Assembly: GCA_965541615.1 (NCBI GenBank)
Contig: CBEUCJ010000004.1
Coordinates: 21,167 to 85,166 of the forward strand
Length of the DNA: 64,000 bases
Direction of reading: 5' to 3'
From: an uncultured bacterium
GTDB lineage: Bacteria > Omnitrophota > Gorgyraeia > Duberdicusellales > CBEUCJ01
The position numbers and the translations under genes are program-made. Within the stretch, counting starts at the first letter, position 1, and the number at the start of each line of letters is the position of its first letter. This document shows, piece by piece, positions 5,769 through 49,651 of the stretch. Below the pieces are notes generated by a model that saw only the letters and a list, made by a program, of their open reading frames with translations, was not told where the DNA came from and did not search any database.

Positions 5769-8700
5769 TTACTCTGAGAATATTTCTTTAAATATCTTTT
5801 TCTTCCATTTTTTGTATATCTTTTCCCACAGTTGCATCCATACTCCATGGACAGAGATTTGTTTGGTAACTTCATTGTTAGTTTCATTTACTTCACCTAT
5901 TTGGTTTTCAGGGTCTACTATTACTTTAAAGATCAGAGGTCCTGGTGTTTGTGGAGTATAAGAGAATGAGAAAGAAGATGAAGAGTTAGCTTTAAGTCTT
6001 GGTAAAATTTTGGTATGAATAGGAGTATTGTTTGCTTTGACCAGAACTTTAACATTGTTTAAGTCTATTTTCCCTGCGTTATGTACAGTTATAAATAAAT
6101 TAACAGGTTCTCTCACATTTACTTTCAGAGAAGGCTTTAAGATAAAATCTTGAGGATAAATGCTTAAATCTGCTCCTTTTTCTTGGAAATAGTAAGGAGG
6201 ATACTCTCCTCCTTTTACATAAAAATAACTCTCCTTTGTTATTTCTCTTACTATCTTACCAAAATATACTTGAGCAGTAGCGCGAATCTTAAATTTCCCT
6301 GGATATACTGCTTTATAAGGAAAAGTAACTTGGAACTCTCCTTTATTTACAACAGATGGCCAAACTTTTACATAACTTGCATATCCAAATTTAGGATCTC
6401 TTTCTTTTTCAACATTGATGATCTCTATTTTTACCACAATATTTCTTAAACTCCTTCCAGAGATGTTTTTAAATTGCGCACCTATACTTTTAGTTTCTCC
6501 TACTTTTATAGGAGTATCAGTTCCCCAAAATTTTGTAACCATAAGAGGAATTCTTTTCTGTATTTCTTTTTCTTTCTGCTTTCTTTTATATGCTTGTTGG
6601 ACTGCTTTTTCAAAATTTCCATAAGTATAAGTTACTTCATTGTTATCTTCATTTACTTCTCTTACTCTATTATAGGGATCAACACTGATCACCATTTTAA
6701 AAGGAGGCTTTTGTGAGTAATTTATAGAAAAATCACGATACTTTTTTGCAGGTATTATTCTTGCAAAACTTGCCAAAACTTTAGATTTTACTTCATTTTC
6801 TTCTATATAAAAAACTTTAAATTTAACCAAAGCAGTTGCAGATTTGGTACCTCTATTAAACACTCTAACTTTACAGCTCTTTCTATCAAGCTTGACATCT
6901 TCTTTTCTTAATACAAAATCGACTCCTTTAACAGGTAGAAATTCTGGAACAGATATTTTTTTGGAGATAACATTATCTTTTTCATTTAGATCTTTGTATC
7001 CTTTTGTTTTAAGAATAGCTTTTATTATGTGAGTTCCACTCTCAGCTTTCCATACAATTAAGTCATTTTCTGGTTTACCATCACCAATTATTATCTTTTC
7101 TCCTGCAGGAATCTTTGTAGAGATATGTTTTATTAATGCAGAATCTACATAAACAAAAATATCTACAGGAGCTTTTGCCTTTCCTTTATTACTAACATTG
7201 ATAAGAAATTTAACTTCATCTTTAGCTTGAAAAGATTCAGGATTAAATTCTAATGAATCTATAGATAAATCATACTCAGGTAAACCAACCTCAACAGTAA
7301 AATAAATACTATTGTTTGATTCATTAAGTTCAGATATTGAATTGTGGGGGTCTACTGTAACTTTAAATGTATATTTGCGAGCTTTATCGAAAGTATATTG
7401 AATACTCGCTATTCTATAAGAGTTTCTTTTAATATAAGGAATGAAAACAGAAGTTATAGGTTTACCATCCTTTTCAAATAAAACATGCACATTTTTTGCA
7501 GGTCTATTTCCAAAGTTATAAACTTTCACCCATATTCTGGTTGGAACTCCTATTTGAGGAGCACCTCCTTTTTCAGATTCTACTCCAAAACCAGGTTCTG
7601 CCAATTTTCCAGAGATTTCTTCAGTTTGTAATAAAAGGTCAGGTTCTGGTGCTATATATACAGACTCATAAGCAGAATTGTTATTTTCCTTAAGTTCATC
7701 GATCTTATTTTCAGAGTCGACTATAGCAACAAATTTGTGTTTACCTGTTCTTTTTATATTGTATGCAGTTTCAATAGCTATAGATTCCTCTTTTTTTAAT
7801 TCTTTTATTATCTGCTTAAAGATAATTTTCCCTCCACATTTGATAACAAAAGGAATTTCTGAAGCATCTATTGCTCCTTTATTTTCAATCACAGCTTTAA
7901 TATTTATTGATTCATCTAATTTAGGTTTTGAAGGAGTAATATCTATAGATTTTACAGTTAAATCAGGACGATTAGGGCCTACTCCTATAGGATAAGGAAG
8001 TCCTTCAGGTATCTCAATACTCACCTCTTTTATTCCTATCCCCCACTTACGTAGCTTTGGAACACTTTCACCTGAGAAACAACTTTTATGTTTATAAAAA
8101 TTTATACAAGCTCCTGCTTCGTTTACGGCTGCTCCTGCTGCAACTACAAGAGAATCAAGTGACACATAAACTCTATAAGTTTTTCCTGCCTCCACAGGTA
8201 CATTTTTAAATTCATACGTTATTTCTTTTGAAATTACTTCATCTGCATCTAAAGCATCTACAGTGTAATCTACAACATCTAATATAGTTCCTATACCTAC
8301 TACTCCTGTTGCTTCTTCTATAGCTTCACTTGCAACTGTTTGAGCGACTTCTTCAGCCCAATCTACCCATTCTTTTTTATTCGTTTTAGCCCAAATAACT
8401 TTTTCTACTATTGGTGAGTTTAAAGGACCTGTAGCTCCTTCATGGACTCCTACACTTATCTTTGCTTTATAAAAATTCTGACCACCAGCAAAAGAACTGG
8501 CATTAATTACTCCAAAAAGAGAGACTTTAAATCTAATATTTACTTTGAATTTTGTTCCAGGTTTTATATTAACGAAACCAAAGGTTTTATAATGATATGT
8601 TCTTAGAGAAGCACGGGCTCCACCTATCCAGGCAGTTGCTGAGCACCAGGATTTTATTCCTGGACTTCTTTGTTTCCATGCAAATTCAGCTGTAGCTTGA

Positions 8701-8843
8701 GCCCCAGATGGATCTTTTTTCTTTGATTCTTTATCTATGTAAACTCCTCCTCCATAAATTTCTGCTTTTTGAATAGGTTCTTTGGCATATATAAAAGGGA
8801 TGAAGATGATTATTAAGAATAAAATTACAGCTTTTTTCTTCAT
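5769..8843 (-). CDS. Large secreted surface protein with N-terminal signal peptide and at least 4-5 CARDB-like repeats
   Basis: Signal peptide MKKKAVILFLIIIFIPFIYA; repeated DP.N.I.E.NE.NN motifs typical of CARDB domains; only minus-strand gene in window. Confidence 0.7.
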   Translation of the reverse strand: MKKKAVILFLIIIFIPFIYAKEPIQKAEIYGGGVYIDKESKKKDPSGAQATAEFAWKQRSPGIKSWCSATAWIGGARASLRTYHYKTFGFVNIKPGTKFKVNIRFKVSLFGVINASSFAGGQNFYKAKISVGVHEGATGPLNSPIVEKVIWAKTNKKEWVDWAEEVAQTVASEAIEEATGVVGIGTILDVVDYTVDALDADEVISKEITYEFKNVPVEAGKTYRVYVSLDSLVVAAGAAVNEAGACINFYKHKSCFSGESVPKLRKWGIGIKEVSIEIPEGLPYPIGVGPNRPDLTVKSIDITPSKPKLDESINIKAVIENKGAIDASEIPFVIKCGGKIIFKQIIKELKKEESIAIETAYNIKRTGKHKFVAIVDSENKIDELKENNNSAYESVYIAPEPDLLLQTEEISGKLAEPGFGVESEKGGAPQIGVPTRIWVKVYNFGNRPAKNVHVLFEKDGKPITSVFIPYIKRNSYRIASIQYTFDKARKYTFKVTVDPHNSISELNESNNSIYFTVEVGLPEYDLSIDSLEFNPESFQAKDEVKFLINVSNKGKAKAPVDIFVYVDSALIKHISTKIPAGEKIIIGDGKPENDLIVWKAESGTHIIKAILKTKGYKDLNEKDNVISKKISVPEFLPVKGVDFVLRKEDVKLDRKSCKVRVFNRGTKSATALVKFKVFYIEENEVKSKVLASFARIIPAKKYRDFSINYSQKPPFKMVISVDPYNRVREVNEDNNEVTYTYGNFEKAVQQAYKRKQKEKEIQKRIPLMVTKFWGTDTPIKVGETKSIGAQFKNISGRSLRNIVVKIEIINVEKERDPKFGYASYVKVWPSVVNKGEFQVTFPYKAVYPGKFKIRATAQVYFGKIVREITKESYFYVKGGEYPPYYFQEKGADLSIYPQDFILKPSLKVNVREPVNLFITVHNAGKIDLNNVKVLVKANNTPIHTKILPRLKANSSSSFSFSYTPQTPGPLIFKVIVDPENQIGEVNETNNEVTKQISVHGVWMQLWEKIYKKWKKKIFKEIFSE

Positions 8844-21151: not shown

Positions 21152-22048
21152 ATGCCAGAATTAATAATTATAGGAGCAGGAGTAGCAGGTATTAGCTGTG
21201 CTATATACGCAAAAAGAGCTAATTTAGATTTTTTAATATTTGAAAAAGGACTTGTAGGTGGTCAACTAAATTTAATCCCCAAAATAGATAATTTCCCGGG
21301 TTTTAAAGAGATTTCTGGACATCAATTAATAGAAAGATTGAAAGAACATTTAAAAGCTTTAGATATTAAGATCAATACTGAAGAAGTTAAATCTTTAAAA
21401 AAAGAGAATGAATTTTTTAGAGTAGAGACAGATAAAAAAACATATTTTTCAAAGAGTGTGGTGGTAGCTACGGGTTCTGTAGAAAGAAAATTAGGTATAG
21501 AAGGAGAAGAAGAGTTTTTGGGTAAAGGAGTCTCTTATTGTGCTATTTGTGATGGATACTTTTTTAAAGATAAATATGTGTGTGTTATAGGTGGAGGGAA
21601 TACAGCTTTGGAAAGTGCTTTGTATCTTTCTAATTTAGCTAAAAAAGTTTACATAATCCATCGCCGAGATAGATTCAGAGGGTTTGAGAGTTTAGCCAGA
21701 CAAATTGCTGAAAAAAATAATATTGAAGTAATCTTTAACCATATTCTATTGAAAATAAAAGGAACTCAAGTTGTAGAGAGTGTTTTTATAAAAGATACTC
21801 AAACCCAAAGTGTTAAGGAATTACCTGTAGATGGAGTGTTTGTATGTGTGGGAAGGAAAGGTGTTACTGAATTTATCAACAAAAGTTTAATAGAAACAGA
21901 CCCTTTAGGTTTTATAAAGGAAGCTAAAACATCAGGTTTTTTCTTTTGCGGAGATGTTATTTCAAAGCCTCATAGACAGATAGGTTTAAGTCTTGGTGAA
22001 GGCATACAAGCTTTTTTTAAAGCCTATGAATTTTTGAGAGGTTTTTAA
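21152..22048 (+). CDS. Thioredoxin reductase-like FAD/NAD(P)-dependent disulfide oxidoreductase
   Basis: GAGVAG FAD motif, redox CAICDG, GGGNTA NAD motif. Confidence 0.75.
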   Translation: MPELIIIGAGVAGISCAIYAKRANLDFLIFEKGLVGGQLNLIPKIDNFPGFKEISGHQLIERLKEHLKALDIKINTEEVKSLKKENEFFRVETDKKTYFSKSVVVATGSVERKLGIEGEEEFLGKGVSYCAICDGYFFKDKYVCVIGGGNTALESALYLSNLAKKVYIIHRRDRFRGFESLARQIAEKNNIEVIFNHILLKIKGTQVVESVFIKDTQTQSVKELPVDGVFVCVGRKGVTEFINKSLIETDPLGFIKEAKTSGFFFCGDVISKPHRQIGLSLGEGIQAFFKAYEFLRGF

Positions 22049-40470: not shown

Positions 40471-40737
40471 TTAAGAAAAAAAGCCAATCACATTTTTGGA
40501 GAGGTTAAAGTATTAGTTTTTGGCTCAGTTGTAAAAGGAGACTATCTTTCAAATAGGGATATAGACATTTTAATCATAACTGAAAATTTGCCTCAAGAAT
40601 TTTTTGAGCAAGTTAAATTAAAACAAAAATTATTAGAAGGTTTAGAAGAGAATCCTTTCCAGATACATCTTGCTGCTCCTCAAATGTATCAAAGATGGTA
40701 TAAGAATTTTATAAAAGATAATTATTTAGAAGTTTAA
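40471..40737 (+). pseudogene. N-terminally truncated nucleotidyltransferase (MNT) paralogue of the gene at 41139; no start codon in frame
   Basis: …VLVFGSVVKGDY…DIDILIITENLP…FQIHLAAP…, about 55% aa identity to 41139 product; frame opens right after a TAA. Confidence 0.5.
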
Positions 40738-40747
40738 GAGGTGTCAA

Positions 40748-41142
40748 ATGGACATTGGATTCTTGAAAGAGAGAGCAAATGAATTTTTTGAAGAAGCGCA
40801 AGAATTATTAAAGAAAAAGAAGTATAATCTTTCAGTTTTCAATTTAGAGCAAGCAATTCAATTATGGATAAAATACTTGATTGGCAAGAAAATAGGAGAT
40901 TGGCCTAAGACGCATTTTTTTCAGAATTAATTCCTCAATTAGCTCAGGTTTATGAGGAAGAAAAGATTTTAGAATTTTATAAAGAAAATGAACTATTTTT
41001 TGATAGTTTAGAAGATGCTCATTTTACTTCTCGGTATTTTCCAAAAAAATTCACTGAAAATGTTATATTAAAACTTTTTGAATATTCTAAAAAATTTTTT
41101 AAATTGATTAAAGAGACTATTAATGAAGATTTTTCCCTATGA
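40748..41142 (+). pseudogene. HEPN-domain gene with -1 frameshift in a T7 run (about 40912-40918)
   Basis: Two consecutive ORF pieces; T8 would give …KTHFFSELIPQLAQV… continuing to HFTSRYFP HEPN motif. Confidence 0.55.
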
Positions 41143-41495
41143 AGAAAAGTCTGGTCGATATAATTTTACCTATACATAAAAAAAAGGAGATGTACTTTAG
41201 GAATTATAAGTCTTATTGTCAAGAAATTAAAAGAATAGCAAAATGTTCTTTGAAAGAAGTAAGAGTGTTAGTGTTTGGTTCAGTGGTAAAAGATAAACAT
41301 ACTCCAAGTAGTGATATCGATGTTTTAATAATTTCTAATAACCTTCCTGAAGAATTTGAAGAGAGAGAAAAGATCAAGACAAATATTAAGTCAAAAATAG
41401 ACCCCTTTTCTCCATTTCAGCTCCATTTAGCCACACCTAAGGAATTTAAAGAATGGTATGAAAACTTTTTGAAAGGTAATTATCTAGAAATATAA
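41139..41495 (+). CDS. Minimal nucleotidyltransferase (MNT)
   Basis: VLVFGSVVKDKHTPSSDIDVLII NTase motif. Confidence 0.7.
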   Translation: MKKSLVDIILPIHKKKEMYFRNYKSYCQEIKRIAKCSLKEVRVLVFGSVVKDKHTPSSDIDVLIISNNLPEEFEEREKIKTNIKSKIDPFSPFQLHLATPKEFKEWYENFLKGNYLEI

Positions 41496-41546
41496 TTTTT
41501 TTAAAAAAATTTCAACTTGACAAAATACAGATTATAGTATATATTT

Positions 41547-41565
41547 GAAAATGAAAATCATTATC
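41547..41565 (+). promoter_or_regulatory. Fur box upstream of fur (17/19 match to GATAATGATAATCATTATC)
   Basis: GAAAATGAAAATCATTATC, 16 nt upstream of fur ATG; overlaps likely -10 region. Confidence 0.6.
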
Positions 41566-41580
41566 AATAAGGAGTGATCA

Positions 41581-42069
41581 ATGCCACACAGAAGGCATAG
41601 AAAAGGAATGATGTGGTGGCATATGAGGTTTATAGATGCAGGTTTTAGAATGACTTTGCCAAGACAAGCAATTATGGAGGTTTTAAGTAACACTACAGAG
41701 CATTTGAGTGCTGAAGAAATATACCTTAAAGTGCGCAAAAGATATCCTGGAATAGGACTTACAACTGTGTACAGAACTTTAGATATTCTAGTTAACATGG
41801 GACTCATATCTAAATTTGATTTTGGAGATGGCAGAGCACGTTATGAATTATCAGAGACTTCAAAGGGTGCAAAACCTCATCATCATCATTTGGTATGTAG
41901 AGAGTGTGGGAAAATAATAGATTATACAGAGTTTATAGATGATGAAGTAGAATTAATTAACAACATTCAGAAAAAACTTTCAGAAAAATATAACTTTAAG
42001 ATAACAAATCACATTATTCAATTTTATGGATTGTGTGATAAATGTCAGCAGAAGAATAAAGTAACGTAA
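41581..42069 (+). CDS. fur: Ferric uptake regulator family transcriptional regulator (Fur/Zur/PerR)
   Basis: Winged-helix N-terminus; HHHHLVCRECG and CDKC metal sites. Confidence 0.8.
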   Translation: MPHRRHRKGMMWWHMRFIDAGFRMTLPRQAIMEVLSNTTEHLSAEEIYLKVRKRYPGIGLTTVYRTLDILVNMGLISKFDFGDGRARYELSETSKGAKPHHHHLVCRECGKIIDYTEFIDDEVELINNIQKKLSEKYNFKITNHIIQFYGLCDKCQQKNKVT

Positions 42070-42088
42070 ATTTTTTTCTTTGGTAAAT

Positions 42089-42107
42089 GAAAATGATTAT
42101 CATTATT
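42089..42107 (+). promoter_or_regulatory. Second Fur-box-like site (16/19) immediately upstream of the aromatic small-protein operon
   Basis: GAAAATGATTATCATTATT, 21 nt upstream of ATG 42128. Confidence 0.5.
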
Positions 42108-42127
42108 AATAAAAGGGGGTGAGAAAA

Positions 42128-42355
42128 ATGAGAGGAAGAAATTTTTGGGGACCAGGATTTTGGAAATTTGGGTATTTAGGATATCCTTATTATCCAAGCT
42201 ATTTTGGATTTCCTTTTTTCTGGGGTAGAGGAAGAGGGAATCCATTTCCTTTTTGTAGATGGTTTCCATTTTTACCTCGTGGATGGTGGGCGATGCCATT
42301 CTTTTTAAGTATGTGGCAAAATATTTATCCATATCAAGGAGGAACTACAAAATGA
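42128..42355 (+). CDS. Small W/F/Y/P/G-rich protein 1 (75 aa; no coiled-coil tail)
   Basis: RBS GGGGGTG; about 45% aromatic+Pro+Gly; ORF-track start 42119 (GTG) replaced by ATG 42128. Confidence 0.55.
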   Translation: MRGRNFWGPGFWKFGYLGYPYYPSYFGFPFFWGRGRGNPFPFCRWFPFLPRGWWAMPFFLSMWQNIYPYQGGTTK

Positions 42356-42519
42356 TTTTTAGAGAAAGCTTTTTAAAATTTATTGATTCTAAATCTTTGC
42401 ATAATGATTCTGCTTACTTTGCTATACATTGGCCCTATTTTTGGAATAGGACTCTTATAGGAAAGAATGTTCAAAAAAAGAAAGAAGGAATAAAAGAAAA
42501 AGTTAAAAAAAGGAGGTGA
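42352..42519 (+). CDS. Small ORF (55 aa) with strong RBS, aromatic/basic
   Basis: GGAGG 8 nt upstream of ATG 42352; fills gap between neighbours. Confidence 0.35.
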   Translation: MIFRESFLKFIDSKSLHNDSAYFAIHWPYFWNRTLIGKNVQKKKEGIKEKVKKRR

Positions 42520-42755
42520 TAGTTATGCCTTTCGGAATGGGACCAGCTGGTTGGTTTTTAGCACCATACATTTATCCTCAGATTTTAAATTTTTATCAAA
42601 ATTTTCTAAGAATGTGGGGTTATCCATTTTATGGATTCTCAATGCCCTTTTATGGAGGTGATGAATTAAGTTACTTAAAACAATTAAAGCAGAATTTAGA
42701 ACTTCAGTTACAAGACATTGAAAGAAGGATTAAAGAATTAGAATCTACTACTTAA
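42516..42755 (+). CDS. Small W/F/Y/P/G-rich protein 2 with C-terminal coiled-coil (…LELQLQDIERRIKELEST)
   Basis: RBS GGAGGTGA; MPFGMGPAGWF… N-terminus; heptad-like C-terminus. Confidence 0.65.
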   Translation: MIVMPFGMGPAGWFLAPYIYPQILNFYQNFLRMWGYPFYGFSMPFYGGDELSYLKQLKQNLELQLQDIERRIKELESTT

Positions 42756-42777
42756 TAAAATAAGGAGGTGAGGGGAT

Positions 42778-43080
42778 ATGAGAGGTTATAGACATAGAAA
42801 TATGTATTATTTAACAGGATTACCTGGTTGGATGAGATTTGGATTTAGTCCTGGGTGGGGAGGTTTACCTCCTGGAGCTCAATATATGTTTACAGGAAAT
42901 TGGCCTACTCTGCAGGCAAATTCTTTATGGTCAAATATTTCTCAAAATGCAACATTTGATCCTTATAAAGTCTCTCAGATTAGTAAAGAGCAAGAGTTGC
43001 AGCTTTTAAAGCAACAGGCAGAAGCTTTAAAAGCTCAGCTTGAAAGAATAGAAAAAAGAGTTCAAGAGTTAGAGTCTTAA
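42778..43080 (+). CDS. Small W/F/Y/P/G-rich protein 3 with C-terminal coiled-coil (…LKAQLERIEKRVQELES)
   Basis: RBS GGAGGTGA; paralogue of the preceding two genes. Confidence 0.65.
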   Translation: MRGYRHRNMYYLTGLPGWMRFGFSPGWGGLPPGAQYMFTGNWPTLQANSLWSNISQNATFDPYKVSQISKEQELQLLKQQAEALKAQLERIEKRVQELES

Positions 43081-43115
43081 AAAGTTGTAAGTTTGTTTAA
43101 TAAAGGAGGGAGTTT

Positions 43116-43634
43116 ATGAAAATTTGCGTAACAGCTCAAGGAAATACTTTAGAATCTTTGGTAGATCCCAGATTTGGAAGAGCTCAATATTTTATAATTT
43201 ATGATACTGAGACTGATTCTTTTGAAAGTATCTTAAATCCAAATTTAAATCTATTTTCAGGAGCAGGAATTCAAAGTGCACAACTTATAGTACAAAAAGG
43301 AGTTCAAGTTTTAATTACAGGAAACGTGGGACCCAATGCTTTTAATGTATTAACAGCTGCTGGAATAAATATAATAACAGGTATAATGGGAGTATCAGTA
43401 AAGGAAGCTATAGAAAGATTTAAGAGAGGAGAGTTGAATTTTACTTTTTCTCCAACAGTCTCTAAACACTTTGGAGCTCAAATGTATCCACCAAACTTTG
43501 GGACGATGCCATATCAATTTCAAACTTCTAAAGCACAAGAACTTAATATGTTAAAACAACAACTTCAATTTTTAAAACAGCAGATCGAGATGATAAACCA
43601 GAGAATAAAGGAGTTAGAAAAAAATGAGCAATAA
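43116..43634 (+). CDS. NifB/NifX-fold protein ('dinitrogenase FeMo-cofactor-binding' domain) with a C-terminal aromatic+coiled-coil extension homologous to the preceding small proteins
   Basis: …DPRFGRAQYFIIYD…ITGNVGPNAF…; tail GAQMYPPNFGTMPYQF…LKQQLQFLKQQIEMINQRIKELE. Confidence 0.65.
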   Translation: MKICVTAQGNTLESLVDPRFGRAQYFIIYDTETDSFESILNPNLNLFSGAGIQSAQLIVQKGVQVLITGNVGPNAFNVLTAAGINIITGIMGVSVKEAIERFKRGELNFTFSPTVSKHFGAQMYPPNFGTMPYQFQTSKAQELNMLKQQLQFLKQQIEMINQRIKELEKNEQ

Positions 43635-43914
43635 AGCTACAGTCCTTAAAGAAATTTGTAGAGGATGTGGACTTTGTGCTTTTAGTTGTCCTCAGAATGC
43701 TATAACTATCATCTTTGGAAAAGCTGAAGTAGATAAATCTAAGTGTATAGGATGCAGAAGATGCATCCAAGTATGTCCTGTAAAAGCTATTGTAATCACT
43801 CCTTCTGTAAATAAAGAAGAAGTAGAGATTTTTAAAAAACAGGTTAGAAGATTAAAGGAGAGAATAACGACTGTTAACAGAAAGATAAAAGATTTATTAG
43901 AAAAAAGGAGGTGA
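43624..43914 (+). CDS. 2x[4Fe-4S] ferredoxin with C-terminal basic coiled-coil tail
   Basis: CRGCGLCAFSCP and CIGCRRCIQVCP; tail …RRLKERITTVNRKIKDLLEKRR. Confidence 0.75.
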   Translation: MSNKATVLKEICRGCGLCAFSCPQNAITIIFGKAEVDKSKCIGCRRCIQVCPVKAIVITPSVNKEEVEIFKKQVRRLKERITTVNRKIKDLLEKRR

Positions 43915-43917
43915 TTT

Positions 43918-44625
43918 TTGAAAGTAGCTATAGCTGTAGATAAAGGTAAAGTTTCAGCTCATTTTGGAAGATGTGAAGAGTTTGTCTTATTAGAAATAGA
44001 AGATTCAAAAGTAATCAGTAAAAAAATGATTAAAAATCCAGGACATAAACCTGGATTTCTACCTCAATTTTTAAAGGAGCTAAAAGTAGATGTAATAATC
44101 ACAGGAGGGATGGGTAAAAAAGCTTTAGAATTGTTTGAGAAAGCGCAAATAAAAGTTATTTTGGGGATCACAGGAGAAGTTGAAGACGTAATAAATGAGT
44201 TTTTGAAAGGTAATTTAAAAAGTAAGGAAAGTTTATGTACACGAGATACATTTAAAGAAACTGAAGTTAAGTATTATAAAGAAAAAGGTAGTAAGATTTG
44301 TATTACTTCTAAAGGAGATAGTTTAGATTCAGAGTTAGATCCTAATTTTGGAAGGTGCAACTATTTTATCATTTTTGATTTAGAGAGTTCAGATTACGAA
44401 GCTATAGAAAACCCTTATAAAGATTTACCTCAAGGAGCAGGGATAAGGAGCGCTCAATTTGTTATAGAAAAAAATGTAGATACTCTTTTAACAGGAGAAG
44501 TAGGTCCTCATGCTCAGGAAGTTTTACAGAAAGGCGGGGTTAATTTAATAAAAAGAATTTCAGGAAGAGTAAGAGAAGTAATTGAAGCGTTTAAAAAAGG
44601 AGGACCTAATTATGTGGGGCAATAG
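43918..44625 (+). CDS. Tandem NifB/NifX-fold domain protein (two 'FeMo-cofactor-binding'-like domains)
   Basis: Two repeats of …FGR(C)..F…D…ITGG/TGEVGP… pattern; TTG start with RBS GGAGGTGA. Confidence 0.6.
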   Translation: MKVAIAVDKGKVSAHFGRCEEFVLLEIEDSKVISKKMIKNPGHKPGFLPQFLKELKVDVIITGGMGKKALELFEKAQIKVILGITGEVEDVINEFLKGNLKSKESLCTRDTFKETEVKYYKEKGSKICITSKGDSLDSELDPNFGRCNYFIIFDLESSDYEAIENPYKDLPQGAGIRSAQFVIEKNVDTLLTGEVGPHAQEVLQKGGVNLIKRISGRVREVIEAFKKGGPNYVGQ

Positions 44626-44800
44626 AGAAGAAGATATCAATAGAATTCAGAGAGGACAAGGAAGGATGGGTAGAAGAGGTTTAGGTCCTGGAGGATTTTG
44701 TAAATGCTTAAGATGTGGCACAAGAATTCCTCATCAAAGAGGAACCCCTTGTTATACTTTAACTTGTCCTAACTGTGGGGCAAGGATGGTTAGAGAATAA
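44612..44800 (+). CDS. Small Gly/Arg-rich zinc-ribbon protein (CxC…CG…CPNCG)
   Basis: GRMGRRGLGPGGFCKCLRCG…CPNCG; ORF-track start 44582 would overlap upstream gene, ATG 44612 preferred. Confidence 0.5.
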   Translation: MWGNREEDINRIQRGQGRMGRRGLGPGGFCKCLRCGTRIPHQRGTPCYTLTCPNCGARMVRE

Positions 44801-44821
44801 TTTTGAAGTTTTTTGAAAAAA

Positions 44822-45673
44822 ATGAAAATATCTGTTGCCAGTGGAAAAGGAGGAGTAGGCAAAACCACAGTAGCTGTAGCTTTAGCAGATGTTTTGGTTT
44901 CATCAAAAAATGTGAATGTTTTGTTCTTAGATTGTGATGTAGAAGAACCAAATTCTTATTTTTTTATAAAACCTCAAATAACCCAAAAAATTCCAATCTA
45001 TACTCAGATTCCTCAGGTAGATAAAAATAAGTGTAATTTTTGTGCAAAATGTAGTAAAATTTGTGCTTATAATGCTATAGCAGTGGTGAAAACAGAGGTC
45101 TTAATATTTGATAATCTTTGTCATGGATGTGGAGCTTGTAGTTTTTTTTGTCCTCAAAAAGCAATAAAAGAAGTGAACAAAGAAATAGGATTTATTGAAA
45201 TAGGAGAAAAAGAAAATTTAAAATTTATTCATGGCAAATTGAAAATAGGACAAGCAATACCTACACCTTTAATTAAAGCTGTAAAAAGCTATATAAATGG
45301 TTTTGATTTTACTATAATAGATGCTCCTCCAGGAGCAAACTGTAGTGTAGTAGAATCTGTTAAGAACACAGATTTTTGTATTGTAGTTACAGAGCCTACC
45401 CCTTTTGGTTTAAGTGATATGATTCAGTTGACGCAGCTTTTAAAAAGGCTTGGTATTAAATTTGGAGTGATTATAAATAAAGAGAATTTAGGAGATGAAA
45501 GAGTTGAAAAGTTTTGCAAAGAAAATGATATTCCTATTCTACTAAAGATTCCTTTTCTGAGAGAAGTGAGTTTTCAAAGTGCAAAAGGTCAAATTTTAAC
45601 AAAAATCCTACCTGAGTATAAAAGAGAGTTTGACAAAGTTATAGAAAGAATTAAAGTTCTAAACTCAAATTAG
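44822..45673 (+). CDS. MinD/ParA-superfamily P-loop ATPase with inserted 2x[4Fe-4S] ferredoxin domain
   Basis: SGKGGVGKTT; CNFCAKCSKIC and CHGCGACSFFCP. Confidence 0.8.
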   Translation: MKISVASGKGGVGKTTVAVALADVLVSSKNVNVLFLDCDVEEPNSYFFIKPQITQKIPIYTQIPQVDKNKCNFCAKCSKICAYNAIAVVKTEVLIFDNLCHGCGACSFFCPQKAIKEVNKEIGFIEIGEKENLKFIHGKLKIGQAIPTPLIKAVKSYINGFDFTIIDAPPGANCSVVESVKNTDFCIVVTEPTPFGLSDMIQLTQLLKRLGIKFGVIINKENLGDERVEKFCKENDIPILLKIPFLREVSFQSAKGQILTKILPEYKREFDKVIERIKVLNSN

Positions 45674-45687
45674 GAGGGGGGTAGAGT

Positions 45688-47034
45688 ATGTTTATTAATA
45701 CTGATATTCTAATAATTGGCGCAGGTCCTGCTGGAATAGTAACAGCAACTACTGCACGTAAATACTATCCTGAGAAGAAAATTTTGATAGTAAAAAATGT
45801 AGAAAGAGGAGTAATCCCTTGTGGAATTCCTTACATGTTTTATAGTTTAAAGAATCCTGAGGAAAATGAGTTAAAGATTACTCCTTTAGAAAAGAAAAAT
45901 ATTCAGGTAATTATAGATGAAGTAGTAAACATAGATAGAATTCAGAAGATAGCCTATACAAAGAATGGAGATATGATAAATTATGAGAAATTAATAATGG
46001 CAACAGGCTCTCTTCCTCAAAGTTTGCCTATTCCTGGAATAGAGAAAGAAGGAGTTTATTTGATTTATAAAGATATGGAATATCTCAGAAAAGTGGTAGA
46101 AAAAGTAAAGAATTCAAAGAATGTCTTAATAATAGGAGGAGGGTTCATTGGATGTGAAGTGGCAGATGAGATTTCCAAAATAGAAGGAGTAAATGTGTAT
46201 TTAGTAGAAGTTTTACCTAATTTGTTAGCAAATTCTTTTGATCCTGAATTTTCTAAAATCGTAGAAGAAAAGTTAGTTTCAGAAGGTGTCAAGGTCTTAA
46301 CTAATACTAAAGTAGTAGAGATTATAGGTAAAGAAAAGGTCGAAGAAGTCCTGTTATCTGATGGAAGAAAAATAAAAGTAGATGTGGTGATTTTAGGGAT
46401 AGGTTCTGTTCCTAATACAGAGTTAGCTCAAAAAATAGGTTTAGAGATAGGTAAAAGAAAGGGGATAAGAGTAGATGAATACATGAGGACTTCAGATCCA
46501 AACATATTTGCAGTCGGAGACTGTGCAGAAAAAAGAGATTTTTTTACACGTAAACCTGTTCAAGTAATGTTAGCTTCTACTGCTACAGCTGAAAGCAGAA
46601 TCTGTGGAGCAAATATTTATAAATTAAAAGTAATCCGTGAAAATAAAGGTACAATCGCTATCTATTCAACATTTATAAATGGAGTAGTTTTAGGTTCTGC
46701 AGGTTTAACTGAAAAAACTGCAAATTTAGAAGGATTTGAGATTATAACAGGCATTGCAGAAGCTCCAGACAAACACCCTAAAACTTTACCTTCAGCAAAC
46801 AAAATAAAAGTAAAGCTTATTTTCTCAAAACATTCAGGGATTATTTTAGGAGGACAGGTTGCAGGAGGCATGAGTTGTGGAGAGTTAATAAATTTAATAG
46901 GTGTAGCTATTCAAAAAAGAATGTCTTTTACAGAATTAGAGACTTTACAGATGGCTACACACCCTTATTTAACACCAGCACCTACAATGTATCCTGTAGT
47001 TTTAGCTGCTCAAGATGCAGCGAATAAGATTTAG
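45688..47034 (+). CDS. Pyridine nucleotide-disulfide oxidoreductase of the CoA-disulfide reductase / NADH oxidase (single-Cys) family
   Basis: IIGAGPAG FAD motif, redox PCGIPY Cys, IIGGGFIGCE NAD motif. Confidence 0.75.
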   Translation: MFINTDILIIGAGPAGIVTATTARKYYPEKKILIVKNVERGVIPCGIPYMFYSLKNPEENELKITPLEKKNIQVIIDEVVNIDRIQKIAYTKNGDMINYEKLIMATGSLPQSLPIPGIEKEGVYLIYKDMEYLRKVVEKVKNSKNVLIIGGGFIGCEVADEISKIEGVNVYLVEVLPNLLANSFDPEFSKIVEEKLVSEGVKVLTNTKVVEIIGKEKVEEVLLSDGRKIKVDVVILGIGSVPNTELAQKIGLEIGKRKGIRVDEYMRTSDPNIFAVGDCAEKRDFFTRKPVQVMLASTATAESRICGANIYKLKVIRENKGTIAIYSTFINGVVLGSAGLTEKTANLEGFEIITGIAEAPDKHPKTLPSANKIKVKLIFSKHSGIILGGQVAGGMSCGELINLIGVAIQKRMSFTELETLQMATHPYLTPAPTMYPVVLAAQDAANKI

Positions 47035-47040
47035 AGAGAG

Positions 47041-47916
47041 ATGAATCCAAAAGAGTTAGTTATAATTAGTGGAAAAGGTGGCACAGGTAAAACTACTCTT
47101 GCTTTGGGTTTAGTTTCCATTTTTAAAAATATAGTAATTGCAGATTGTGATGTAGATACTCCTGATTTACATTTGGTATTAAAGCCTTATAAGACAGAAG
47201 AAAAAGGAATATTCAAAGAGAGGTTTACAGCTTTCATAAATAAAGACAGATGTATAGAATGCGGAAAGTGTAGACAAGTTTGTAGATTTGAAGCTATAAG
47301 CAAAGATTTAGTGGTGAACTCTTTAGAATGTCAGGGTTGTAGATTTTGTGAATTAGTGTGTCCTCAAAAAGCAATAGAGATGAGAGAAGAGATTACAGGA
47401 AACTGGCAGATTTCTCAAACAAGATTTGGTCCTTTTGTTTGGGCTCAACTTACTAATTTAGGTGAGAATTCAGGAAAATTGGTAAGTTTAATAAGAGAGA
47501 AGGCAAGAAATCTTGCTAAAAAAATAGGTTCAGAATTAGTCATCATAGATGGTTCACCAGGTATTGGATGTCCAGTAATAGCTTCTATAACTGGTGCAAA
47601 TTTTTGCGTAGTAGTCACAGAGCCTAGCTTATCAGCTTTACATGATGCTGAGAGAGTTATAAGACTTACTGAACATTTTAGAATAAAAGCGGGTTTAGTG
47701 ATAAATAAATACGATTTAAATCCAGAGTTAACTCAAAAGATCCAAGATTGGGCTCAAAAAGAAGAGGTTGCTATTTTAGGAAAAATAAAGTTTAAAGAGT
47801 CAGTAATAAAAGCTATGTTGGAGTTAAAAACCGTAATAGAATTTCCAGATCAAGAAATAAAATCTACTTTTTACGAGATTGCATCTAAAATAAAAGAAAG
47901 ATTAGAAGCTAGTTAA
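47041..47916 (+). CDS. Second MinD-type ATPase with inserted 2x[4Fe-4S] ferredoxin domain
   Basis: SGKGGTGKTT; CIECGKCRQVC and CQGCRFCELVCP. Confidence 0.8.
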   Translation: MNPKELVIISGKGGTGKTTLALGLVSIFKNIVIADCDVDTPDLHLVLKPYKTEEKGIFKERFTAFINKDRCIECGKCRQVCRFEAISKDLVVNSLECQGCRFCELVCPQKAIEMREEITGNWQISQTRFGPFVWAQLTNLGENSGKLVSLIREKARNLAKKIGSELVIIDGSPGIGCPVIASITGANFCVVVTEPSLSALHDAERVIRLTEHFRIKAGLVINKYDLNPELTQKIQDWAQKEEVAILGKIKFKESVIKAMLELKTVIEFPDQEIKSTFYEIASKIKERLEAS

Positions 47917-47930
47917 TTGGAATAATTATT

Positions 47931-48755
47931 ATGCAAGGAGTAGATAATTTTTCCCAAATAAAAATGCAGATAAAAGAAAATCTTTCTCAAGTAAAATATA
48001 AATTACTTATTATCAGTGGAAAAGGAGGGGTAGGCAAAACCACAGTAGCTGTAAATTTAGGATATAGTTTAGCTGTTAAAAAATATAAAGTTGGAATATT
48101 AGATGTAGATATTCATGGTCCAAATGTGCCTAAAATGTTAGGGATAGAAAATCAAAGACTTACAGCCTCTGAAAGTGGAAGAATAGAACCCGTTCAGGTT
48201 TTACCTAACTTAAAAGTAGTGAGTTTAGCTTTAGTAGGTGAGGATCCTGAAAAACCAGTCATATGGCGAGGACCTTTAAAAACAGCAGTAATTAGACAGT
48301 TTTTAGCTGAAAGTAATTGGCAAGATTTAGATTTCTTAATTGTAGACTCTCCTCCTGGAACAGGAGATGAACCTTTAAGTGTTTGTCAATTGATCTGTGA
48401 GTTAGATGGAGCAATAGTAGTAGCTACTCCTCAAGAAGTAGCTCTTTTAGATGTTAAAAAGAGTATTTTATTTGCTAAAGAGTTAGGTGTCCCAATAATT
48501 GGAATAGTTGAGAATATGAGTTTCTTTATATGTCCTCATTGCCAAAAAAAGATAGATTTACTCACAACACAAAAAATTGAAGAAATTATTCAAAAGACTG
48601 GTATTCAGATTTTAGGAAGACTTCCTTTTGATATTGATGTGTTAAGATTTCAAGATAGAGGAAGACCTTTTGTTTATTTTAATAAAGATTCAGAAGCAGC
48701 CAAAATTATGGATAGAATTACAGATAAAATTGTAGATTTTTTAGTAAAAAAATGA
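47931..48755 (+). CDS. Mrp/ApbC/NBP35-family Fe-S cluster carrier ATPase
   Basis: SGKGGVGKTT plus C-terminal CPHC motif. Confidence 0.8.
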   Translation: MQGVDNFSQIKMQIKENLSQVKYKLLIISGKGGVGKTTVAVNLGYSLAVKKYKVGILDVDIHGPNVPKMLGIENQRLTASESGRIEPVQVLPNLKVVSLALVGEDPEKPVIWRGPLKTAVIRQFLAESNWQDLDFLIVDSPPGTGDEPLSVCQLICELDGAIVVATPQEVALLDVKKSILFAKELGVPIIGIVENMSFFICPHCQKKIDLLTTQKIEEIIQKTGIQILGRLPFDIDVLRFQDRGRPFVYFNKDSEAAKIMDRITDKIVDFLVKK

Positions 48756-49651
48756 GAACGTATTTAGATTGTATTCCTTGTTTTTTTAAGCAAGCATTAG
48801 AAGCTTCAAGGATTTCTGGAGCGAGCAGAATAACACAAAAAAAAGTGTTAGATGAATTAGCAAAAATTTTGCCTAAGTTTTCTTTAAACACACCTCCTCC
48901 TTTGATGGGTAGAGTTATTTATAAATTGGTTAGTAAACTTACTAAAAATTTAGATCCTTATCGTGAGATAAAAATAAAAAGTAATGAATTAGCTTTAAAT
49001 ATTTATCCAAAGTTAAAGAGAAAAGTAGCACTTTCAAAAGATAGATTAAAAAAAGCTATAGAGTTAGCTATTGCAGCAAATTCTATAGATTATGGAGTAA
49101 GAAACTCTTTGAATATAGAAGAAGAATTAAAAAGAATTTTAAGAGAAGAAGAAAAGACTATTAAAGTGGAAAATAAAAGATTTTTTGAGTATGAGGAATT
49201 TAAAAAAGCTTTAAATAAAGCAAAGACTATTCTTTATTTAGGTGATAATGCAGGAGAGGTGGTTTTTGATAGAGTTTTGATTGAAGAGATTAAAAAAATA
49301 GATAAGAATAAAAAAATAATTTATGCAGTAAAATCTAAACCTATTATAAATGATGCTTTAGTTGAAGATGCTTTACAAGCAGGCATTCATAAAGTAGCTG
49401 AGATAATCCTTTCAGGAGTAGATGCTCCAGGCACTATTCTTTCTTTATGTTCAAAAGAATTTTTAAAAGTTTATAAAAATGCAGATCTAATAATCAGTAA
49501 AGGACAAGGAAACTTTGAAGCTTTATCAGACAAAAAGCATCCAATATTCTATTTGTTTATGGCAAAGTGTAAAACTGTGGCCAACCACTTAGGATGTAAA
49601 CTTAGAGATATAATTCTGTTTCATAATTTAAATAATAAAGTGTTAAAATAA
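48752..49651 (+). CDS. DUF89 (ARMT1-like damage-control phosphatase) family protein
   Basis: N-terminal DCIPCFF motif and overall DUF89-like sequence. Confidence 0.55.
   Translation: MRTYLDCIPCFFKQALEASRISGASRITQKKVLDELAKILPKFSLNTPPPLMGRVIYKLVSKLTKNLDPYREIKIKSNELALNIYPKLKRKVALSKDRLKKAIELAIAANSIDYGVRNSLNIEEELKRILREEEKTIKVENKRFFEYEEFKKALNKAKTILYLGDNAGEVVFDRVLIEEIKKIDKNKKIIYAVKSKPIINDALVEDALQAGIHKVAEIILSGVDAPGTILSLCSKEFLKVYKNADLIISKGQGNFEALSDKKHPIFYLFMAKCKTVANHLGCKLRDIILFHNLNNKVLK

Follow-up and report, generated by a model that had tools for sequence, protein, structure and literature searches.

Why do four neighboring genes that code for otherwise different proteins end in the same way? The question is raised by a stretch of 64,000 nucleotides (the window, positions 21,167 to 85,166 of contig CBEUCJ010000004.1, assembly GCA_965541615.1) from an uncultured bacterium of the Omnitrophota. 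Four consecutive genes within it code for two small proteins, a NifX-fold protein resembling the orange protein (ORP) of Desulfovibrio and a 2x[4Fe-4S] ferredoxin (Table 1). An original prediction, made from the sequence, had proposed that all four carry one and the same C-terminal amphipathic helix that serves to recruit them to a common assembly. We have analyzed the tails, their relatives in other genomes and the genes around them. With moderate confidence, and judging by sequence features, we propose that the tail is a coiled-coil assembly module that would bring small disordered proteins together with the ferredoxin and the ORP-like carrier in a Fur-linked assembly for handling metal sulfides, similar to those of ORP or IssA.

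The products of 42525-42755, 42778-43080, 43116-43634 and 43624-43914 align without gaps over their last ~30 residues and in a single register. Read heptad by heptad and listed in gene order, the residues at a are L,K,L,I; L,A,L,V; L,L,I,I and V,V,I,I. At d the ferredoxin has F,L,V,L, while the other three proteins share L,L,I,L. At g the first small protein has E,L,Q,R, both the second small protein and the NifX protein E,Q,Q,R, and the ferredoxin E,Q,R,K. We compared pairwise local scores of the tails with those of composition-preserving shuffles. Among the first three tails the z scores were between 6.4 and 9.8, and not one of 2000 shuffles equaled the real score. For the pairs that include the ferredoxin tail they were between 3.0 and 7.9, with 22, 0 and 0 of 2000 shuffles equal. 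Besides, we built a hidden Markov model (HMM) of the tail from 178 relatives, leaving out the near-identical homologues of the window, and ran it against all 765 stop-to-stop open reading frame (ORF) pieces in the six frames of the window. The first four places were taken by these four proteins and no others, with E values of 4e-13 (NifX protein), 2e-12 (second small protein), 1.3e-4 (first small protein) and 0.37 (ferredoxin), and no additional tail copy was found by this model among the 765 pieces. Given these values, three of the tails are secure, while that of the ferredoxin is suggestive and marginal. The predicted common motif therefore stands for three products, and in the ferredoxin it is in register and ranks fourth.

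K, E, L and Q abound in the tails, and that of the ferredoxin is, taken alone, not significant against the family profile, so that the likeness could be a by-product of low-complexity helices. This had been named in the original prediction as one of the outcomes that would refute it, with shuffled sequences as the control. The shuffles given above, the rank of the four proteins among the ORF pieces and the presence of polar residues at fixed heptad positions argue otherwise. Out of 1.84 billion representative proteins, a profile of 33 positions made from the four tails retrieved only 93 at E <= 1e-3, and in nearly all of them the match fell on the very C-terminal end of a short protein or fragment rich in Gly, Pro and aromatic residues; matches so few and so consistently terminal are not explained by generic K/E/L/Q coiled coils. 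For three tails these comparisons refute low complexity, and as an account of the whole resemblance it is scarcely credible. The DNA identity between the tails of the window was between 44 and 59%, which indicates old paralogous modules and rules out a recent duplication or gene conversion.

The four ORFs are found on the forward strand as had been predicted, with two corrections to the first of them. Its product ends in ELESTT, one T beyond the end quoted before, and its start is most likely ATG 42525 and not GTG 42516, since AGGAGG lies 7 nt upstream and the homologues begin with MPFGMGPAGW. This class is found upstream of a gene of the type of the second small protein (D778 type) in many loci. 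The prediction that the modules ahead of the helix are unrelated was borne out: the small proteins have peptides rich in Gly, Pro and aromatic residues that differ from each other, the third product has an ORP/NifX-fold domain and the fourth is a 2x[4Fe-4S] ferredoxin, with no detectable mutual similarity. Specifically, the two small proteins resembled each other ahead of the helix in nothing but composition (shuffle test), and the N-terminal motif YYxTGLPGWMRFGxSPGW of the second one was invariant in the alignment of its homologues, of which 339 were found. The NifX protein matched Pfam Nitro_FeMo-Co at 8e-25. Its nearest solved relative was the ORP of D. gigas (2wfb; phmmer 1.4e-23), on which Foldseek superposed the NifX domain with a template modeling (TM) score of 0.93, a root-mean-square deviation of 0.8 A and 43% identity, and it also matched MTH1175 (1eo1) at 5.5e-18. 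The ferredoxin matched the Fer4 families of Pfam at 1e-16, and its gene overlaps that of the NifX protein by 11 nt.

A further claim was that an aromatic stretch just before the helix (GAQ...) is also shared by the NifX protein and the second small protein, GAQMYPPNFGTMPYQF versus GAQYMFTGNWPTLQ, and that the whole tail module, this stretch included, had been shuffled onto a folded domain. The match had a z score of 0.38 and 1724 of 5000 shuffles scored as well, so it is compositional and the argument built on it rests on chance. The aromatic stretch was likewise rejected as part of a homologous module when the regions before the helix were considered together: those of the three proteins and the protein coded at 42128 were alike in composition only.

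The shared tail is, by profile comparison, the C-terminal module of the Pfam family DUF5320 (PF17253), which is annotated there only as of unknown function. All four tails align to the C-terminal half of its profile (positions ~47-99). The NifX protein reached 27.5 bits (E 7e-6, residues 116-167 on profile positions 47-99), above the gathering score of 27 bits. Below that cut-off were the second small protein with 26.7 bits (1.3e-5), the ferredoxin with 20.7 bits and the first small protein with 16.5 bits for the ORF from 42516 (E 0.02 over positions 48-99 for the product of 42525-42755). A 99%-identical relative (P0121) of a window protein that falls below the cut-off carries PF17253 in precomputed annotation, and so do, together with PF02579, most full-length homologues of the NifX protein. 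The Pfam model lumps several distinct N-terminal modules with the tail, and both the ferredoxin fusion and the view of the tail as a shared module are absent from it.

We derived a consensus of the tail from 181 relatives (113 stand-alone proteins and 68 NifX fusions), EQEL-x-(M/F/L)-LK-x-QA-x-x-LK-x-QL-x-x-I-x-KRI-x-ELEK. The a and d positions were occupied by I, L, V, M or F in 96-100% of them, with one a position that is mostly Ala, and Q9, Q16 and E26 were conserved polar positions. The apparent invariance of R23 is not independent evidence, since R/K was imposed at this position by the regular expression with which the tails had been anchored. The ferredoxin tail keeps E2 and Q9 and has R16 and K23 instead of the consensus residues. 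The g to e' pairs E2-K7 and R23-E28 would suit a parallel zipper. AlphaFold2 predicts for the NifX protein a domain with a predicted local distance difference test (pLDDT) score of 96-98, a linker (residues 121-136) with values below 50 and then a single helix at residues 139-171 with values of 76-84. For the second small protein the N-terminal part was poorly defined and followed by a helix at residues 70-99 (71-85). The amphipathic helix of the original prediction is thus recovered as one long predicted helix with canonical heptads. The tail has every feature that a parallel coiled coil would show in its sequence, namely an unbroken hydrophobic 3-4 repeat over four heptads, complementary g-e' pairs, a predicted helix and a flexible tether. 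No solved structure was found for the small protein, and its structure matches were chance coiled-coil similarity only. One representative protein of 149 residues (P0317) has two tandem copies of the tail with an aromatic/Gly-rich stretch before each, and looks like a natural fusion of two small proteins of the DUF5320 type.

In order to see in which company the tail is found, we scanned the D778-type family over collections with one genome per species and examined the best 80 of 516 places. The figures for these loci are conditional on a D778-type gene and based on simple ORF calls and phmmer matches to the window proteins. The loci belong to more than 15 phyla, among them Omnitrophota (the nearest relatives), Aerophobetes, Aminicenantes, Chloroflexota, Cloacimonadota, Bipolaricaulota, Thermotogae, Caldisericota, ANME-1 and Methanosarcinales. 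At least two tail-bearing ORFs (2-4) were present in 65 of the 80. NifX proteins with the tail, for which the original prediction had proposed to search other genomes, made up 53 of the 173 tail-bearing ORFs and were counted in 53 of the 80 loci. This fusion is common in metagenomes, where the linker is usually longer than in the window, of the GMGRGMG type, and variable in length. A NifX-domain gene was found in 76 loci, MinD-Fer4 in 52 (usually paired), Mrp in 48 and Fur in 39. The recurring order is Fur, (D119), small protein, D778, NifX, (NifX), (Fd), Mrp, Cys, MinDFer4, MinDFer4, with the tail on the small protein, D778 and NifX. Two fully annotated relatives have the same arrangement, with 77% and 48% identity to the NifX protein of the window.

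In the account that we favor, a DUF5320 helix of ~30 residues and four heptads would be tethered to the preceding module by a disordered Gly/Pro/aromatic linker. The helices would zip in parallel, as homo- and probably also as hetero-oligomers, and once zipped would keep together, as a single assembly, the carrier domain, the protein for electron transfer and the peptides rich in Gly, Arg and aromatic residues. This assembly would work together with the co-encoded Mrp and MinD-[4Fe-4S] ATPases on iron-sulfur or metal-sulfide clusters, under the control of a dedicated Fur-family regulator. We infer the binding of tail to tail, its stoichiometry and the chemical function of the assembly. The zipping is suggested by the heptad and charge features, by the similarity of the tails between classes and within loci and by the complementarity of their charges. 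The tail of the ferredoxin is basic (pI 10.7, net charge +6.5) and those of both small proteins are acidic (pI 4.8-5.2), which favors mixed pairing over self-pairing. Heptad a/d core, e/g charge pairs and the option of pairing acidic with basic helices are what the tails have in common with leucine-zipper modules for heteromerization. The identity between tails of different classes was 0.447, close to the 0.458-0.524 found within classes, as fits a common binding constraint. Pairs within a locus were slightly, though significantly, more alike than pairs between loci (0.472 versus 0.447; 0 of 5000 permutations).

Each tail might instead drive only the self-association of its own protein, as a dimer or trimer, the likeness being then one of common descent with no co-assembly through the tails. 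Coiled-coil modules are commonly reused for homo-oligomerization, and the class of the first small protein has L-K at g/a of heptad 2 versus Q-A elsewhere, which could encode self-specificity. The DNA identities between the tails likewise fit an ancient, independent evolution. But tails that pair only with themselves agree poorly with a between-class identity equal to that within classes, with the charge of the ferredoxin tail, which disfavors self-pairing, and with genes that are adjacent and translationally coupled across phyla. We consider self-association alone unlikely, while granting it real weight.

Several points weigh against the joint assembly as well. A zipper is not required for the formation of ORP complexes in general, since the ORP of D. 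gigas (a chain of 120 residues in 2wfb) is tail-less and the ORP complex of D. vulgaris assembles. The classical mode of Fur repression would mean expression under iron shortage, which fits trafficking or salvage better than storage. The excess of similarity within loci is small (2.5 points) and could be caused by genome composition, and the ferredoxin tail, weak as it is against the family profile, may be a coiled coil that evolved independently. Finally, the co-occurrence counts are conditional, the 80 loci having been chosen through one tail-bearing gene.

Table 1. Features of the locus, in window positions
Feature	Positions	Strand	Remarks
Predicted Fur box, before fur	41552..41566	+	TGAAAATCATTATCA; 1 mismatch to the 7-1-7 consensus TGATAATNATTATCA
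Fur-family regulator, short N-terminal extension	41581..42069	+	Pfam FUR 7.7e-36
Two overlapping predicted Fur boxes, before first small gene	42088..42108	+	TGAAAATGATTATCA (1 mismatch); TGATTATCATTATTA (2 mismatches)
Small cationic aromatic protein D119, without tail	42128..42355	+	motif NPFPFCRWFPFLPRGWW; between Fur and the tail genes
Small protein 1, MPFGMGPAGW-type N-module	42525..42755	+	tail helix at 42657-42746; DUF5320 and tail HMM
Small protein 2 (D778 type), N-motif YYxTGLPGWMRFGxSPGW	42778..43080	+	tail at 42988-43077
Orange-protein-like NifX protein	43116..43634	+	domain 1-112, disordered linker ~113-138, tail helix at 43533-43622
2x[4Fe-4S] ferredoxin with basic heptad tail	43624..43914	+	residues 1-60 Fer4; tail at 43813-43902
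Double NifX-domain protein	43918..44625	+	Pfam Nitro_FeMo-Co 1e-48, two stretches; NCBIfam MrpORP, C-terminal part, 139.6 bits
Small Arg/Gly-rich, six-Cys protein	44612..44800	+	homologue in 55/80 loci
MinD/CbiA-type P-loop ATPase with inserted 2x[4Fe-4S], Orp3/Orp4-like	44813..45673	+	Pfam CbiA/ParA and Fer4
Pyridine nucleotide-disulfide oxidoreductase, between both MinD-Fer4 genes	45688..47034	+	Pfam Pyr_redox_2 1e-69
Second MinD/CbiA-type ATPase, 2x[4Fe-4S]	47041..47916	+	Pfam CbiA and Fer4
Mrp/NBP35 (NUBPL-type) Fe-S carrier ATPase	47931..48755	+	Pfam ParA (NUBPL iron-transfer P-loop NTPase) 3e-91
ARMT1-like (DUF89) protein, recurrent accessory	48752..49651	+	Pfam ARMT1-like_dom 2.5e-69; 14/80 loci

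The company of ATPases allows another explanation, namely that the tail, alone or with the disordered region before it, is an adaptor that docks to ATPases of the ParA/MinD type (the MinD-[4Fe-4S] pair or Mrp). McdB consists of a disordered region and a coiled coil, and partners of its type couple cargo to a ParA-like ATPase. The small proteins of the window have the same build and are encoded beside ATPases of the ParA/MinD family; the likeness is one of form only, and the ATPases of the window differ in carrying Fe-S motifs. Two MinD-Fer4 genes and Mrp accompany the tail genes in ~50 of the 80 loci, while in ~30 there was no MinD-Fer4 within the fetched flank, many of these contigs being short. 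In Desulfovibrio MrpORP is polar and the ORP complex has been linked to cell division (PMC6345978), as would suit an adaptor of this kind. The regular a/d stripe and the conserved e/g charges of the tail are more typical of zippers between helices, and we regard the adaptor as distinctly improbable.

The joint assembly draws its biochemical setting from homology to Desulfovibrio ORP and to IssA. In Desulfovibrio ORP (Orp8), Orp3/4 and MrpORP (Orp9) co-purify as a physical complex in which MrpORP hands Fe-S clusters to the others, and it is only from Desulfovibrio that such a complex, and a Mo/Cu-sulfide cluster on ORP, are known (PMC6345978). The window shares with that cluster the NifX-fold ORP homologue, two MinD-like 2x[4Fe-4S] ATPases, Mrp/NBP35, further NifX domains and a small Cys-rich protein, as well as the confinement to anaerobes. 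It differs in that the ORP homologue and the ferredoxin bear the coiled-coil tail, in the two to three extra small proteins of the DUF5320 type ahead of them and in the inserted pyridine nucleotide-disulfide oxidoreductase, which was found in 7 of the 80 loci, mostly Omnitrophota-like ones. Mrp (47931) and the double NifX protein (43918) are separate genes in the window and not an MrpORP fusion. Actually, the NCBIfam model of MrpORP (NF041136, cut-off 450 bits) gave 31, 140 and 59 bits for the products of 43116, 43918 and 44813, all below the cut-off, and the Mrp protein matched in Pfam only NUBPL/ParA-type ATPase families and no NifX domain. The regulator differs as well: the window has a Fur-family protein with Fur boxes and co-directional genes, where Desulfovibrio has the sigma-54 activator OrpR between divergent operons, and no member of the sigma-54 activator family was found among the ORFs at 29-54 kb of the window. 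In gene content the locus fits the description of an ORP-type cluster best, with the ORP fold and the double MinD-[4Fe-4S] pair present, and the MrpORP fusion and the OrpR/sigma-54 regulation absent. The protein with six Cys is a possible counterpart of Orp5 (DVU2105 / Dde_3197). Its cysteines have a ribbon-like spacing, with an Arg/Gly-rich N-terminus ahead of them. Its homologue in three related loci (L003-L005; 11921-12139 in L003) begins with MPRGDGTGP...GRG, a motif with which many DUF5320 proteins start, so that a second module seems to have been shuffled within the cluster.

In Pyrococcus furiosus, IssA relies on a Gly-rich tail of cationic and aromatic character when storing iron and sulfide in the form of thioferrate, MTH1175 serves as the model of its clade, and an uncharacterized non-thermophilic clade of relatives with Gly-rich tails, IssX, has been mentioned (PMC5524996). 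IssA and the NifX protein of the window have in common a NifX/IPR003731 domain and, behind it, a flexible region with Gly, aromatic and cationic residues; many homologues of the window protein have GMGRGMG linkers. The tail-less protein coded at 42128-42355 (D119) matches the composition of the IssA tail, with a pI of 10.3 versus 10.7. The IssA tail is described as unstructured and without a terminal coiled coil, whereas in the window the linker of the NifX protein is short and barely basic (26 residues, one basic residue, pI 8.9), is followed by a structured helix, and is thus no long cationic Gly/aromatic tail. Most of the cationic and aromatic material of the window is encoded in trans. The likeness of the locus to IssA in its way of working is therefore an analogy only. 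A bolder reading, quite unlikely in its full extent, would have the zipper recruit the ORP-like NifX carriers, the ferredoxin and Gly/Arg/aromatic "mineral-binding" peptides into a previously unrecognized, protein-scaffolded metal-sulfide particle or condensate of anaerobes (thioferrate-like Fe-S or Mo/Cu-S). Mrp and the MinD-[4Fe-4S] ATPases would build or mobilize it, a Fur paralogue of its own would switch it, and the whole would amount to a modular equivalent of IssA, encoded in trans and distributed among more than 15 phyla of bacteria and archaea.

The original prediction had compared the tail with the peptides that recruit cargo to encapsulin or microcompartment shells, and a terminal helix behind a flexible linker, common to unrelated proteins of one locus, is indeed what both have in form. 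Encapsulin cargo peptides are short motifs and the encapsulation peptides of bacterial microcompartments (BMC) have ~18 residues. The tail is longer, with 30 residues in four conserved and regular heptads, and would most likely bind to like helices rather than to the surface of a shell. No encapsulin/Linocin_M18, BMC-H, BMC-P or EutN family was found among the scanned ORFs at 29-62 kb of the window (all but a few of at least 90 residues; 1-29 kb lay outside the scan) nor in five related annotated loci (L001-L005). The analogy to shell cargo was therefore dropped, and targeting to a shell is very improbable.

The DUF5320 family and the architecture that unites it with NifX are already in databases. 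In the literature we searched, DUF5320 had two incidental mentions in unrelated contexts only, and nothing relevant was found on IssX, on Dde_3197 or on orange protein together with coiled coil; nor is anything said there of the link to Fur, of the ferredoxin fusion, of a gene order that is conserved or of the tail as a module common to several proteins. The locus bears on two questions, what the ORP complex does, which is specific to anaerobes, and how anaerobes store or traffic iron and sulfide. It connects both to the unstudied family DUF5320, with at least 516 places in collections of one genome per species. The single conserved zipper, present on the putative carrier of clusters, on a protein of electron transfer and on several disordered peptides with cationic and aromatic residues, provides an experimental handle on the assembly, and the dedicated Fur regulator suggests iron availability as the relevant condition.

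A ferredoxin with the tail was examined as a widespread architecture and rejected as such: a word-based search of 5.8 billion proteins gave only two close relatives, and the cluster ferredoxins of other phyla are mostly too diverged for the DUF5320 tail profile. These have either C-terminal heptad helices, mostly more diverged, or long Arg/Gly-rich basic tails, and a recognizable ferredoxin tail was seen again in an Aerophobetes locus (L046, 17 bits). The ferredoxins of nine loci from several phyla (L027, L028, L036, L045, L049, L058, L076, L077 and L081) have a C-terminal extension of 90-105 residues with an Arg/Gly-rich end (for example ...GRRHRRRGG) and no heptad helix.

Upstream of the tail genes, the NCBIfam best match of the Fur protein was the Bacillus-type Fur, below the cut-off. 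Just 5' of the Fur box before its gene there is a promoter-like site (41517-41545). Sites with at most one mismatch were found only twice in the 64-kb window, at 41552-41566 and at 42088-42102. The box upstream of the first small gene has an identical copy at the same place in L001/L002, and in L001, which is the nearest relative, a related version of the site before fur is kept in the corresponding position. With the Bacillus-type consensus no Fur box was found near the DUF5320 genes of the distant loci L003-L005. About 30 of the cluster-linked Fur genes in the 80 loci lie 0.8-1.3 kb upstream and on the same strand. Their products form a recognizable subgroup with an N-terminal extension (MPHRRHRKGMMWWHMRF in the window, MPGxxxWxHRF-like elsewhere), which loosely recalls the RHRNMYY...WMRF start of the second small protein. 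In the distant relative (L003-L005; 48% identity) the cluster lies directly downstream of a Fur-family gene and an oxidative-stress block with rubrerythrins, desulfoferrodoxin, a flavoprotein, a NifU-like protein and a ferritin-like protein, neighbors that hint at a redox or iron-stress context.

The D119 protein has 36% F/W/Y, 29% G/P, 8 K/R, no D/E and one Cys. It belongs to the same system despite the missing tail; homologues were found in 19 of the 80 loci, and in L025, L063 and L003 its N-module is joined to the tail. Its stop codon is overlapped (ATGA) by the ATG of an ORF of 55 residues on the forward strand (42352-42519). The first 35 residues of this ORF are ~70% identical to a called gene of 52 residues in L001/L002, with no match in the other loci, and it may be a lineage-specific small protein or non-coding. 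Between a histidine kinase and Fur, at 40588-41495 on the forward strand, there are degenerate pairs of HEPN and minimal nucleotidyltransferase (MNT) genes, in the form of an MNT-like fragment of 49 residues, a truncated HEPN of 60 and a nucleotidyltransferase of 118; L001 has no called genes there. At the other end, the ARMT1-like gene is followed by one for an ArsP_2 permease. Nearly all long ORFs of the window are on the forward strand, its G+C content is ~30% and the GC skew is positive in 31 of 32 intervals of 2 kb. The only large ORF on the minus strand (5769-8843) coincides with the one interval of negative skew.

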